DNA from: a virus
Taxonomy: Duplodnaviria; Caudoviricetes
Virus record (IMG/VR): IMGVR_UViG_3300010352_001202
Strand: one strand, 5' to 3'
Length of the DNA stretch: 64,000 bases
Below the pieces are notes generated by a model. That model saw only the letters and a list, made by a program, of their open reading frames with translations. It ran no database searches and had not been told where the DNA came from. Each line of letters starts with the position of its first letter. Positions within the stretch are counted from its first letter, which is position 1. The translations under genes and the position numbers were made by a program. Positions 125-63,779 of this stretch are shown piece after piece.

Positions 125-324
125 CAAAGACACACAGAAGAAAAGGTAAGGAAGTAGGATCAAAAGATCCAAAGGGTAAATGTGACATGTGTAACCATAG
201 AAAAGCTACACATTGGTTTGGTATGACAAGCGTTGCATTATGCGACGAGGAAGAGTGCGCAGAACGAAATCAGGTTAACTGGGATCGCATGATAGAAGAC
301 ATGGAAGATGAAAATGGTTATTGA
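121..324 (+). CDS. small hypothetical protein, possible Zn-binding (CxxC...CxxxxC)
   Basis: ORF track; translationally coupled to both neighbours. Confidence 0.6.
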   Translation: MTKTHRRKGKEVGSKDPKGKCDMCNHRKATHWFGMTSVALCDEEECAERNQVNWDRMIEDMEDENGY

Positions 325-520
325 TATTCTTGATTGGGATATAACTTATACTGAACTTATGCAATGGATTTCCATTACGGGTGCCGAGTTAGTTGCCATT
401 ACCGGCCTTGGTGGCTTTGGAGCATTTACCGGCTCCGTTGGTCCATGTACAAAGTACGAATTTTATAAAGAGGAAGACTTTGTAATGTTCAAACTTGCTT
501 TTCAAAAAGAAAAGAAATAA
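308..520 (+). CDS. small hypothetical protein, 'F..EED...FKL' family member
   Basis: C-terminal YEFYKEEDFVMFKLAF motif shared with five other ORFs in the window. Confidence 0.7.
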   Translation: MKMVIDILDWDITYTELMQWISITGAELVAITGLGGFGAFTGSVGPCTKYEFYKEEDFVMFKLAFQKEKK

Positions 521-595
521 CATATAAAGTAGGATATCGAGATAAACAGATATTTGATGTATCTGCTTACTACGCACCCTATATTCCGTATCCAA

Positions 596-60407: not shown

Positions 60408-60430
60408 GAAACCGCCGCAAGGCGGTTTTC
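60408..60430 (+). terminator. Rho-independent terminator
   Basis: AAACCGCC-GCAA-GGCGGTTT. Confidence 0.85.
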
Positions 60431-60431
60431 G

Positions 60432-60476
60432 TATTGTGTCAATAAAAATTGACACAATATAAGTTTGTGTTATAAT
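60432..60476 (+). promoter_or_regulatory. sigma70-type promoter TTGACA-16-TATAAT with a palindrome over the -35
   Basis: TATTGTGTCAAT-AAAA-ATTGACACAATA. Confidence 0.7.
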
Positions 60477-60503: not shown

Positions 60504-60737
60504 ATGTCTGATAATAATACATATGTACCTATGAACGAGCTTATTCGTGAAAAGGAAAAATCCTGGACATTTACGCATATAAACTTGCCATATGCTGAAA
60601 TTGCTAAGAAGGGAATTGTAATTTGGTGCGTAGAAAATCTAGAAGGTAGATGGACTATGCTAGGTGGTAATAAATTCGGATTTGAAGACGGTACTGACGC
60701 AACTATGTTCAGAATGCAATTTGGACTGGGAATTTAG
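60504..60737 (+). CDS. small hypothetical protein, 'F..EED' family member
   Basis: WCVENLEGRW...FGFEDGTDATMFRMQF. Confidence 0.75.
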   Translation: MSDNNTYVPMNELIREKEKSWTFTHINLPYAEIAKKGIVIWCVENLEGRWTMLGGNKFGFEDGTDATMFRMQFGLGI

Positions 60738-60974: not shown

Positions 60975-62109
60975 TATTGCAAGAAATATCTATTTAGCCT
61001 GGAACACAACAAACCAAAAATTTGAATTACCTGAGGTAGAAGTAATACCAATCGGAGACTCGGCAAACGAGAAGCGGAAAGGTGCCTCTGCGACAAAGAA
61101 GTATGTAAATCTGCGTGAATTTGAAAATCGACCATTGCCCGGATTCGCACTACATAAGACCGATCGTAAAAATTGGGGATCAATCGATCAAACTTGGCTG
61201 GTCATTGATCCCCGCGGATTCCTAGTTAGAATCACAAACGATAATCTAGAACAGATCTTACATGTAACAGGAATTACAGAAGGGCTGATTCAAGAAAAGT
61301 GTATCTGGGCACGCAAAGATACACAGACAAAGACGATGTTGATTCCCGTAAGTTCTGCAAAATATGCAGAAGCAGTTTCGAATACAGAATTACTCGAAGG
61401 CAAGGTAAACATCAAGGATGTGCAAATCGGCGATGAAGTATTATTACAGAATCAGCTAAAAGGCACATACATGGGTGTTGTATCTCTATATGGCCCAATG
61501 AATGATTATTCTACAACATGCGTATATAAGCCGCAGGTCTATCTAAGGCGCCAGGTTGTTAAGATTTCCCCGGGAAAATATCACTATCAAACCGATGTGA
61601 AAATCCTAAAGGTTCTTAAGAAGGCAGCAACACCGCTAACACGGGAAGACTCAGTTGAAGAAATGAGTAAAGATATTGCCGGCGGCGCCGCGTACTTTAC
61701 CAGCAGTTCAAATATGAACGGTCGATATTATTCTATTCGCGGAGTTATATCTGCTGTATCGACCAACGCTGTTCCTAAGGTGTCAATGACATTTGAAGAA
61801 GTAGATAAAGTTGAAGCAGAAGCATTGTTTAATCTAGGAACGGTAAATAGCGACATTGGAAGACTATTATTAGTTGACAAGAGTGATAATAAATTCTTAG
61901 TTGATTATCCGTATTCGTTTAACAGCACGAAGACAACTTCAATACATGGCTTTGATGTATCGAGACTAACTCCGTGTACATTAGACAAGACTGAAATGAT
62001 TAAGCTAGATTATAAGCGACAAGCTTATTTTCCAGGTGTTCAGACACTTGACAATTTTGCGAAATTCTATAAAATAGTCAAACATGTAAAGGACAAGTCC
62101 TACATTTGA
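60967..62109 (+). CDS. hypothetical protein
   Basis: FEN.PLPGF, W.VIDPRGF.V.IT..NL, G.IQEKCIW. Confidence 0.75.
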   Translation: MLNIARNIYLAWNTTNQKFELPEVEVIPIGDSANEKRKGASATKKYVNLREFENRPLPGFALHKTDRKNWGSIDQTWLVIDPRGFLVRITNDNLEQILHVTGITEGLIQEKCIWARKDTQTKTMLIPVSSAKYAEAVSNTELLEGKVNIKDVQIGDEVLLQNQLKGTYMGVVSLYGPMNDYSTTCVYKPQVYLRRQVVKISPGKYHYQTDVKILKVLKKAATPLTREDSVEEMSKDIAGGAAYFTSSSNMNGRYYSIRGVISAVSTNAVPKVSMTFEEVDKVEAEALFNLGTVNSDIGRLLLVDKSDNKFLVDYPYSFNSTKTTSIHGFDVSRLTPCTLDKTEMIKLDYKRQAYFPGVQTLDNFAKFYKIVKHVKDKSYI

Positions 62110-62121
62110 CTAAGGATAGAA

Positions 62122-62532
62122 ATGACAAAAAATATCGATCTAAAAAAGTATGCACAATTTGTTGATGGCGTAACAGCCCAGCCAAGCAAGGAACTTCAGG
62201 CTCTTATTAGCCGAATGCAAGAGCTAGAAGCACAGGGCGCTAATGTTCCCCGCTTGCTTACAGCAGGCATTGGAATGCCTGGCGAATCTGGAGAGTTCAG
62301 CGAATTGGTAAAGAAGATTGTATTCCATGGTAAGGCATACGACGAAGAAAATATTACCAAACTGAAGAAGGAATTAGGCGATGTCGCTTGGTATTGGACT
62401 CAAGCTTGTCTTGCTCTTGATATCGACCCTAACAGTATTATTGCTGAAAATGTGGCTAAGTTAGAGGCACGCTACCCGGGTGGTAAGTTTTCTGTGTGGC
62501 ATGCAGAAAACAGGCAAGAGGGTGATGTCTGA
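62122..62532 (+). CDS. MazG-like nucleotide pyrophosphohydrolase
   Basis: GESGEFSELVKK...KKELGDVAWY...NVAKLEARYP. Confidence 0.88.
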   Translation: MTKNIDLKKYAQFVDGVTAQPSKELQALISRMQELEAQGANVPRLLTAGIGMPGESGEFSELVKKIVFHGKAYDEENITKLKKELGDVAWYWTQACLALDIDPNSIIAENVAKLEARYPGGKFSVWHAENRQEGDV

Positions 62533-63052
62533 TTTTAGAAAAATAATGTTGCCCATGATTCGGAGAATACTTCCGAGTCTTGTGGCACAGGAAATTATGA
62601 GCGTTCAGCCCATGACCGCATCAACAGGGAAACTATTTAAAATGGGATTAGGGCCGCCAGTTTGTACCTTATGCATGATTATAGGTACTCTTAACAATGA
62701 AGATAAGGGGCACCCCTGGCGTTGCCACAACTGTGGTGATTTTAAATTACCGGGGCACTTGTGGTCGTATACTGAAGATTTGCAACAATATATCCAGAAT
62801 AGAACTACATTGTATAAGGGTAGAAAAATTATGGAATCTAAAAAACTTCTACCTCATTCAGTAATAAAATCCTTCATGTTTGTTGGCAGCAATTTAGAGC
62901 CTAACGAACGGTATAGAGCATGGCTAGAAGAACATATTGGAAAACAAGGCGAAGCGTGGAACTGGGACATAAAATCAGTAACTGCTAACTTACTTGAAGT
63001 TTCTTTTGAACAGGAAGAGGATGCAGTCCTCTTCAGATTATCATGTCAGTAA
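62525..63052 (+). CDS. fusion: gp23 Gol-like peptide + Zn ribbon + 'F..EED' domain
   Basis: MIRRILPSLVAQEIMSVQPMTASTG; CTLC...CHNC; WLEEHIG...FEQEEDAVLFRL. Confidence 0.75.
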   Translation: MSDFRKIMLPMIRRILPSLVAQEIMSVQPMTASTGKLFKMGLGPPVCTLCMIIGTLNNEDKGHPWRCHNCGDFKLPGHLWSYTEDLQQYIQNRTTLYKGRKIMESKKLLPHSVIKSFMFVGSNLEPNERYRAWLEEHIGKQGEAWNWDIKSVTANLLEVSFEQEEDAVLFRLSCQ

Positions 63053-63320: not shown

Positions 63321-63489
63321 TAAATAGGAAAAAGTCGAAGGCTGGTTTCTAATACCTTCGAAGGAAGAACAAACACTCTTGATTCTGCAAGGTAAATGCC
63401 CGCATAATAAAGCATGGTACGAGGACGGGCATTCGCATAACTCCACTGCCTATAAATGTAGTATGTGTCGTGAGATTAAATTCTGGTAA
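63310..63489 (+). pseudogene. small Zn-finger ORF interrupted by an in-frame TAG at codon 6
   Basis: GTG GAA AAT AAT AAA TAG GAA AAA GTC...CPH...HSH...CSMC...FW TAA; fills the gap between neighbours exactly. Confidence 0.4.
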
Positions 63490-63779
63490 TGGAATTCAAA
63501 ACAATAGTTCAGCATTGGAGATATGAAGACGGTTGGAGGGAAATTCCAACCATTCTTCGCGACAAATACGACGGGCGGGAAAAAGAATTTGATGAAGCTT
63601 TAGTAGGATGGCATTGCTGGGTCTATCCAGCAAATGATAAAGATTTTGCTCGCTGGATGAAAAAGAATATGAAAGGGAAGTACGAATGTGACTTCCGATT
63701 TAACTCGGGAGACCCAATGTTCACCGTCCTAATAAAAGATGATCAAGACGCTACCTTATTTAAATTAACCTGGATGTAA
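63489..63779 (+). CDS. small hypothetical protein, 'F..EED' family member
   Basis: WMKKNM...IKDDQDATLFKLTW. Confidence 0.75.
   Translation: MEFKTIVQHWRYEDGWREIPTILRDKYDGREKEFDEALVGWHCWVYPANDKDFARWMKKNMKGKYECDFRFNSGDPMFTVLIKDDQDATLFKLTWM

Follow-up and report, generated by a model that had tools for sequence, protein, structure and literature searches.

Several bacterial defences are triggered by phage major capsid protein (MCP), among them Lit, CapRel, Avs7/8/10 and Dsr1. For phage T4, the partners of one segment of the MCP gp23 are EF-Tu, which engages it through domains II-III in a complex sensed by the Lit (U49) protease, and GroEL. This 29-residue segment, known as the Gol region, is gp23's most conserved part, and it binds EF-Tu domains II/III and licenses cleavage by Lit (PMC3014915). 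According to Snyder and Tarkowski 2005, as cited in PMC3012670, the gp23 N-terminus directs fusion proteins to GroEL. Avs7 also senses MCP with EF-Tu as a structural partner, and further MCP sensors have been listed (bioRxiv 10.64898/2026.01.04.697583). Here we analyse a 64,000-nucleotide stretch of the IMG/VR virus record IMGVR_UViG_3300010352_001202, called the window below, which contains a small gene whose predicted product begins with a Gol-like capsid segment and continues into a small folded carrier. It is a firm conclusion that the segment is an MCP-derived, selected and portable module that forms a disordered tail on an accessory protein; translation of the gene and its start codon are predicted. 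The design, an MCP peptide displayed on small accessory proteins, appears to be undescribed. The gene and its capsid-derived part are placed as follows.

62525-63052, plus strand: target open reading frame (ORF; protein P0001), 175 amino acids (aa) plus stop, with an ATG that overlaps the stop codon of the preceding MazG gene (ATGTCTGA)
62528-62644, plus strand: N-terminal tail, residues 2-40, the MCP-derived module, defined by Pfam, alignment to Protein Data Bank (PDB) chains, identity to clade MCPs, predicted local distance difference test (pLDDT) values and the ratio of non-synonymous to synonymous substitution (dN/dS)

The sequence of the target ORF is as first read, and its homologues are 42-78% identical to it. 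Residues 2-40 of the protein match positions 2-40 of the 376 in the Pfam family Gp23 (PF07068) with an E-value of 4e-10 and 40.1 bits, against a curated cut-off of 24.4 bits, and the same residues match PHROG 138 'major head protein' (E 3.6e-8). When PDB chains were searched with phmmer, residues 8-40 aligned without gaps to T4 gp23 95-127 (6uzc, 5vf3), with 14 of 33 positions identical. Complete relatives G006-G008 served as the reference for the MCP of the phage's own clade, which is 390 aa long and 96-100% identical among these three genomes; the tail is closer to this protein (56% identity to residues 59-90) than to T4. The capsid match stops at residue 40, and the complete HK97 fold (P and A domains, ~350-520 aa) is not present in the target.

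An initial annotation of the window, made from the DNA alone, had quoted the T4 Gol sequence, counted 13 of 29 identities to it and taken the match to be essentially confined to the Gol region. The quoted sequence agrees with both the PDB and the MCP-T4 alignments, the count is correct over the stretch that was used, and the remainder of the protein consists of four invariant cysteines and a C-terminal small domain; the proposed alignment to the Gp23 profile likewise gave the above-threshold PF07068 match. Judged by sequence, the tail has diverged from the linear MCP segment of which it is a copy, the one that is best conserved in that protein and comprises the end of the N-arm and the first P-domain strand.

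The window corresponds to positions 81546-145545, minus strand, of a 184,470-bp record (G000) with a CheckV completeness of 48%. Full-length MCP is absent from this 184-kb record, which holds three MCP fragments only. A protein identical to the target is also recorded on a 388,165-bp contig, and complete relatives with terminal repeats are 363-385 kb long, so that the source is an uncultured jumbo phage of ~360-390 kb with a T4-type (Gp23-family) capsid protein.

Structure prediction separates the capsid segment from the rest of the protein. An AlphaFold2 model built from a 40-sequence alignment (mean pLDDT 79.7) leaves residues 1-40 unstructured (pLDDT 40-56) and folds residues 41-175 confidently (pLDDT 81-97) as a zinc ribbon, a helix at 84-98 and, at 106-175, a beta-alpha-beta-beta-alpha domain. 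In the model, the capsid segment is thus a flexible N-terminal extension of a small folded carrier, whose two domains are encoded as follows.

62645-62764, plus strand: zinc ribbon (CxxC...CxxC), residues 41-80, with invariant alignment columns and short strands at pLDDT 88-92
62840-63049, plus strand: C-terminal beta-alpha-beta-beta-alpha domain, residues 106-175, pLDDT 81-97, with homologues in >60 metagenome loci

The ribbon starts at an invariant M40-G-L-G-P-P, and its cysteines C47, C50, C67 and C70, which form two CxxC knuckles, are invariant among the 13 sequences aligned; all indels in this alignment keep the frame. The ribbon gave no significant named family among Pfam and PHROG profiles or PDB chains. 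The C-terminal domain carries the motif PNxxYRxWLEExxGxQGxxWNW...LxVxF..EDAxLFRL and is homologous to a PNxHYRPWLEEHxGKQG family found at the >60 loci. No Pfam or PHROG family was found for the carrier as a whole, Foldseek returned nothing at E <1, and the ESM Atlas gave no named neighbour; comparison to known folds with VIA-align produced generic ferredoxin/RRM/ACT-like matches only (Z up to 6.3). The initial annotation had described a free-standing Gol homologue fused to a zinc ribbon and to a repeated small domain. The fusion to the ribbon and to a small domain holds, and the tie of that domain to the other small-domain ORFs of the window (308-520, 60504-60737 and 63489-63779) comes down to a shared terminal motif, EDAxLF(K/R/E)LxW. 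The carrier C-terminal domain also occurs in a separate large family of 125-140 aa proteins at metagenome loci L025-L095 (…LWWRFMPGV…ADPNDHYRPWLEEHVGKQGWDWNW…RLTIKIR…), which is without a Pfam or PHROG entry.

The tail is about as well conserved as the domain it is attached to. Across 15 carriers, the 26-codon core has a mean synonymous divergence (pS) of 0.74, which is saturated, and a mean non-synonymous divergence (pN) of 0.26, and dN/dS is 0.06-0.16 where it can be estimated. Mean pairwise identity is 0.52 for the core and 0.59 for the folded C-terminal domain, and MCPs conserve the same positions (P, I-R, P, A, I, V-Q-P-M) as do at least 80% of the fragments. Absence of purifying selection on the segment had been named beforehand as a result that would speak against a functional module; these substitution patterns indicate that the tail is under purifying selection and is not a relic. 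Gene conversion with the MCP gene was considered and ruled out in G008, where the fragment at L147 and the resident MCP share 59% of nucleotides with a pS of 0.86, which places their likeness at the level of the peptide.

Some homologues retain more of the capsid protein than the target does. At L136, MCP residues 2-84 precede a different carrier (46% identity, E 9e-20), and L097 and L127 retain MCP residues 8-93; from its sequence, the window form resembles an L136-type fusion that has lost the propeptide part. Common to all fragments, and different from the MCP, are F-R/Q-K-I before the core and A-Q in place of A-N, which argues for a single origin followed by shuffling and not for repeated capture. 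The tail is shortened or lost in the orthologues L019, L007, L024 and L023.

The module behaves as a portable unit at a variable position. A syntenic block recurs in dozens of contigs, in the order alpha/beta-hydrolase, small domain, two ORFs, MazG, target, 80-aa ORF and small domain, and the position after MazG is a variable slot in which 16 of 37 distinct loci have the module on three types of carrier.

3 of 37 loci: module, zinc ribbon and PNxxYR domain
7 of 37 loci: module and PNxxYR domain only
6 of 37 loci: module and a different domain ending in AFxLxW
21 of 37 loci: a module-less carrier or an unrelated small gene, or MazG followed immediately by the next conserved gene

Elsewhere the module occurs on other carriers (L147 in G008, L244 in G013) or on none (L243 in G011, L140 in G009); in the latter two, the MCP N-terminus comes first, along with an acidic helix/KAPPKPK tag. 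In all, the module is seen on at least five different carriers or without any. Among complete or near-complete genomes whose MCPs are 96-100% identical, it occurs in G008, G011 and G013 and is absent from G006 and G007, and the module-bearing gene is accessory, its presence being polymorphic among phages with nearly identical capsid proteins.

A wider survey was made by searching residues 1-45 with phmmer against 1.84 billion protein representatives (E up to 1e-3) and classifying the 150 matches listed.

8 matches: MCP length
40 matches: small proteins (103-217 aa) with the module followed by at least 35 non-MCP residues
63 matches: MCP-like through to the end; these are probably partial MCPs located at contig ends
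29 matches: ending within 25 residues after VQP
10 matches: no VQP

The small module proteins form at least 40 further clusters at 50% identity, 31 of which bear the module at the very N-terminus, and the 63 matches that are MCP-like to the end could conceal further mini-proteins. In the 31 N-terminal cases homology runs from about K-I/V-x-L-P to F-x-M, equal to T4 ~94-127, which makes the boundaries of the module those of the Gol region. Sampled members of the class are metagenomic 'hypothetical proteins'. No carriers were found in 50,697 deposited phage genomes, where three tblastn queries matched MCP genes only, at one place per record. In PHROG, family 12830 ('major head protein') has a profile of 128 positions that stops exactly at the GVQPM motif, and the target matches its positions 96-127; the family may consist of N-terminal capsid pieces or of first exons of split capsid genes.

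The target module is one of three MCP segments found as fragments in G000, which correspond to MCP residues 59-90, 147-205 and 316-335 and, in the MCP-T4 alignment, to T4 95-127, 252-310 and 436-455. The other two, and the ORF that precedes one of them, are placed as follows.

G000:43285-43500, outside the window (L002 1525-1758), minus strand: fragment 2, a 77-aa ORF matching MCP 147-205
308-520, plus strand: small-domain ORF, 70 aa, ending ...EEDFVMFKLAFQKEKK, which precedes fragment 3
523-591, plus strand: fragment 3, matching Gp23 profile 303-325 and clade MCP 316-335 (T4 436-455), a P-domain strand

The initial annotation had reported a second capsid fragment at 517-615 and, from the pair, a set of capsid-segment display proteins. 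That fragment is real (523-591, frame 1), and the set is borne out by the three segments in G000. It had also been stated in advance that the same segments should recur across related genomes if they formed such a set, and all three do. The types present differ by genome: G006 has fragments 2 and 3 without the N-terminal motif, G013 has the N-terminal motif only, and G007 has none. No A-domain fragments were found among the MCP fragments searched. From HK97 topology, we infer that the three fragments are pieces distant in sequence that jointly build the P-domain, with the caveat that the same segments are also the most conserved, and hence the most detectable, parts of the MCP.

Fragment 3 lacks a start codon, and its frame is -1 relative to the small-domain ORF, which it directly follows. 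ORF 308-520 is followed by the capsid C-terminal motif (…VGYRDKQIFDVSAYYAPYIPY) in the -1 frame across an A-rich run (CAAAAAGAAAAGAAATAA), and in G010 (L145) and G011 (L246) the small domain and the fragment-3 motif make up a single continuous ORF; the break within 308-591 would then be due either to programmed -1 frameshifting or to a frameshift mutation or assembly error. At 554-1183 is a stand-alone 209-aa piece resembling DNA polymerase III alpha (PHROG 11778, E 1e-64), which adjoins a GIY-YIG homing-endonuclease-like gene (1578-2225). The same pair flanks fragment 3 in G011, and the arrangement at 554-2225 points to a split polymerase gene accompanied by a mobile element.

Ahead of a 392-aa glycosyltransferase-like gene lies a capsid-fragment mini-gene that differs by genome, carrying the spine helix, the N-terminal motif or the C-terminal strand. 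These mini-genes (G000:43285-43500, L243, L140, L148 and L150) share an acidic helix and a K-A-P-P-K-P tag (…EEIIRRLKAPPKPK…), and they are a second display design without a globular carrier.

Upstream of the target gene, the operon includes a conserved neighbour and recognisable transcription signals.

60408-60429, plus strand: intrinsic terminator, followed by a perfect promoter, at the start of the target operon
60449-60476, plus strand: perfect extended -10 sigma-70 promoter (12/12), which heads the operon containing the target
62048-62075, plus strand: sigma-70-like promoter, TTGACA-16-TAAAAT (11/12), ~70 nt before MazG
62122-62532, plus strand: MazG-like pyrophosphatase, matched by Pfam and PHROG, the conserved upstream neighbour by synteny and translationally coupled to the target

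Conservation extends upstream of the target ATG, which raised the suspicion of a longer protein or of a frameshift from MazG. This was ruled out: the conserved sequence is the MazG C-terminus, which overlaps in another frame, and it is conserved also at loci without the module. A word-based search for longer proteins sharing the target tail gave only one unrelated MCP (P0014).

Early expression of the target operon is likely, judging from its promoters. Across the genome, near-consensus sigma-70 promoters number 23 on the coding strand and 2 antisense, with 2.2 expected from shuffles, a tenfold enrichment, and two of them precede rIIA, a classical early gene. Evidently, the phage leans on host RNA polymerase for many genes, rIIA included. 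Of 44 related loci, 34 have the promoter before MazG, but because it falls within conserved codons of the upstream gene, its conservation is not independent evidence. The T4-type late promoter TATAAATA was also sought and is not used, with 1 copy in the window against 4.6 expected. A Cpn10/GroES-like co-chaperonin, the analogue of gp31, is encoded at G000:76894-77040, ~4.5 kb past the window end and a few kb from the MazG-target block. All five genomes tested have this gene, and no Cpn60 was found in any of the five; by analogy with T4, the clade MCP probably folds on host GroEL.

The best overall explanation of these findings, which we consider evenly balanced between right and wrong, is a two-part protein in which an MCP-mimicking tail and a folded carrier together act as bait. 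The tail, as a short linear motif, would imitate MCP that is unassembled or nascent and would bind any factor that contacts this segment ahead of its burial in the capsid. It may engage a host surveillance factor that recognises a capsid epitope the phage cannot mutate, and the carrier would make the resulting bait complex non-productive, giving an anti-defence function. Many defences sense MCP because phages can hardly change it; across 286 IMG/VR relatives, the MCP in this clade is 79-100% identical. The existence of carrier-less versions argues for the MCP piece as the active part. Separating the steps, molecular mimicry of unassembled MCP is somewhat probable, and it is favoured because the module shows traits typical of conflict genes: its carriers vary, there is indel polymorphism, and expression is probably early. 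That the protein serves as bait for host surveillance, with the carrier rendering the complex unproductive as an anti-defence measure, is a tentative proposal that we would not call probable. Broader still, and doubtful, is the idea that giant phages possess a widespread, uncatalogued class of early-made 'capsid-epitope display' proteins that neutralise immunity to nascent capsid, such as Lit-like or EF-Tu-assisted sensors.

Several points weigh against the bait proposal. A plain copy of the Lit trigger made early should activate the defence and not block it, so the carrier would have to add the blocking function, a purely inferred role. EF-Tu is also too abundant to titrate, and Avs-type sensors read folded MCP by its shape (bioRxiv 10.64898/2026.01.04.697583), so a linear peptide would be no decoy for them. 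The start codon of the target is predicted, and the homologue P0007 is called from M40, that is, without the tail. As to timing, a weaker sigma-70-like site also precedes the tail-sheath gene. Finally, L136, L097 and L243 keep the whole MCP N-terminus with the propeptide, an arrangement that a capsid- or scaffold-targeting signal would explain no less well, and the initial annotation had overlooked GroEL as an alternative partner (PMC3012670) and the position of the N-terminal region at the prohead scaffold (PMC9546572).

These last points lead to the alternative that survives best, which we nevertheless consider unlikely: that the MCP N-terminal segment is a routing tag that brings a small domain to the scaffolding core, the prohead interior or GroEL. 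In that case the carriers would be cargo, either packaged or chaperoned, like the T4 internal proteins with their capsid-targeting sequence, and the combination of a conserved N-terminal module with variable small cargo in a hypervariable slot does resemble the T4 internal-protein loci (PMC3012670). L136, L097/L127, L243 and L140 retain the MCP N-terminus from residue 2 or 8, propeptide region included, but the window protein and 31 of the 40 other carriers have the Gol-like core alone, without the propeptide. Residues 66-105 of T4 gp23 are disordered, lie inside the unexpanded head and probably contact the scaffold (PMC9546572), and the GroEL targeting by the gp23 N-terminus cited in PMC3012670, together with the Cpn10-like co-chaperonin encoded in the clade, would supply a chaperonin route. 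Against cargo delivery, the carrier-less mini-proteins (L243, L140 and the 77-aa fragment-2 gene) have nothing to deliver, the operon promoters are of sigma-70 type and probably early, and the spine-helix and C-terminal-strand fragments are not natural targeting signals.

An effect on assembly itself is improbable. Under this explanation the three P-domain pieces, which in the HK97 fold are the first strand, the return strand with the spine helix, and the C-terminal strand, compete as strands or helix by inserting into folding MCP, or pair together; the outcome would be delayed or poisoned capsid assembly, of the phage's own capsid or of a co-infecting relative's, or carriers joined in a complex. 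Just three MCP segments occur as fragments in G000 and the same three in relatives, and their T4 equivalents (95-127, 252-310 and 436-455) include the sites of gp31-bypass mutations at 292, 306 and 307 in the spine helix and at 455 in the P-domain sheet (PMC9546572). The fragments also conserve the MCP-conserved positions P, IR, P, A, I and VQPM. However, high conservation by itself would make these segments the most detectable ones, and the fragment types do not strictly co-occur (2 and 3 in G006, the N-terminal motif in G013, none in G007). With clade MCPs 79-100% identical, a poison would also strike the phage's own MCP.

A non-functional relic, in which a piece of the MCP gene was moved by recombination or a homing-endonuclease cassette and left in frame by chance, finds some footing in the homing endonucleases of the genome (the GIY-YIG gene at 1578-2225 adjoins fragment 3), in the missing start codon of fragment 3 and in the shortened or lost tails of L019, L007, L024 and L023, but is highly improbable and, for the N-terminal module, largely refuted by sequence comparison, given saturated synonymous sites with low non-synonymous change, retention on several unrelated carriers and at several loci, the existence of at least 40 independent clusters, exclusively in-frame indels, and a DNA likeness to the resident MCP (in G008) no greater than the peptide requires.

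Returning to the bait proposal and its closest counterparts, the T4 internal proteins (IPI-III) share with the window gene a short conserved N-terminal address, diverse small C-terminal cargo and hypervariable loci, the slot here accommodating three carrier types. Among these, IPI has an anti-restriction function. The capsid-targeting sequence of T4 is ~10 residues long, is unrelated to the MCP and is cut by the prohead protease at (L/I)-x-E. In contrast, the tail described here is MCP-derived and ~40 residues long, and the window protein has neither a propeptide nor an evident cleavage site; it starts MSDFRKIM... with no (L/I)-x-E site before the module.

The GroEL-targeting N-terminus of gp23, which acts with gp31, is a second counterpart. 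It is the N-terminal part of a protein of the same family, T4 fusions to it are redirected, and the present clade encodes a Cpn10-like protein and no Cpn60 in the genomes tested. We know of no described natural fusions of the gp23 GroEL-targeting region to other domains. Should the tail instead serve to address proteins to GroEL, EF-Tu or the prohead, it could be used in engineering as a natural tag for protein routing.

Within the clade, the sister mini-genes (L002, L150, L148, L145 and L246) follow the same principle, with one conserved P-domain element on a tag or carrier. They share the acidic-helix/KAPPKPK tag with L243 and L140 and differ in the MCP segment, which is the spine helix or the C-terminal strand, and in their loci.

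The nearest system is the Gol/Lit/EF-Tu interaction of T4 (e14 exclusion). The segment is homologous and of Gp23 type, and the bounds of the module on more than 40 carriers are those of the ~29-residue Gol region; by analogy, it may likewise work as a linear peptide apart from the folded capsid protein. As a 40-residue peptide on a small soluble carrier, it could be a reagent for the long-standing proposal that Gol regions of T4-type phages generally contact EF-Tu, and if the broader idea of a class of capsid-epitope display proteins is true, it would give a direct handle on the 25-year-old question of Gol conservation and EF-Tu contact in all hosts, and trigger mimicry would be a general counter-defence. 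Unlike the Gol region of T4, which is part of the full-length MCP and a liability, the segment here is a separate, selected and portable module on small proteins, and the occurrence of such a copy of the Lit-trigger segment on accessory proteins that come and go suggests mimicry of the phage's own protein rather than escape by mutation.

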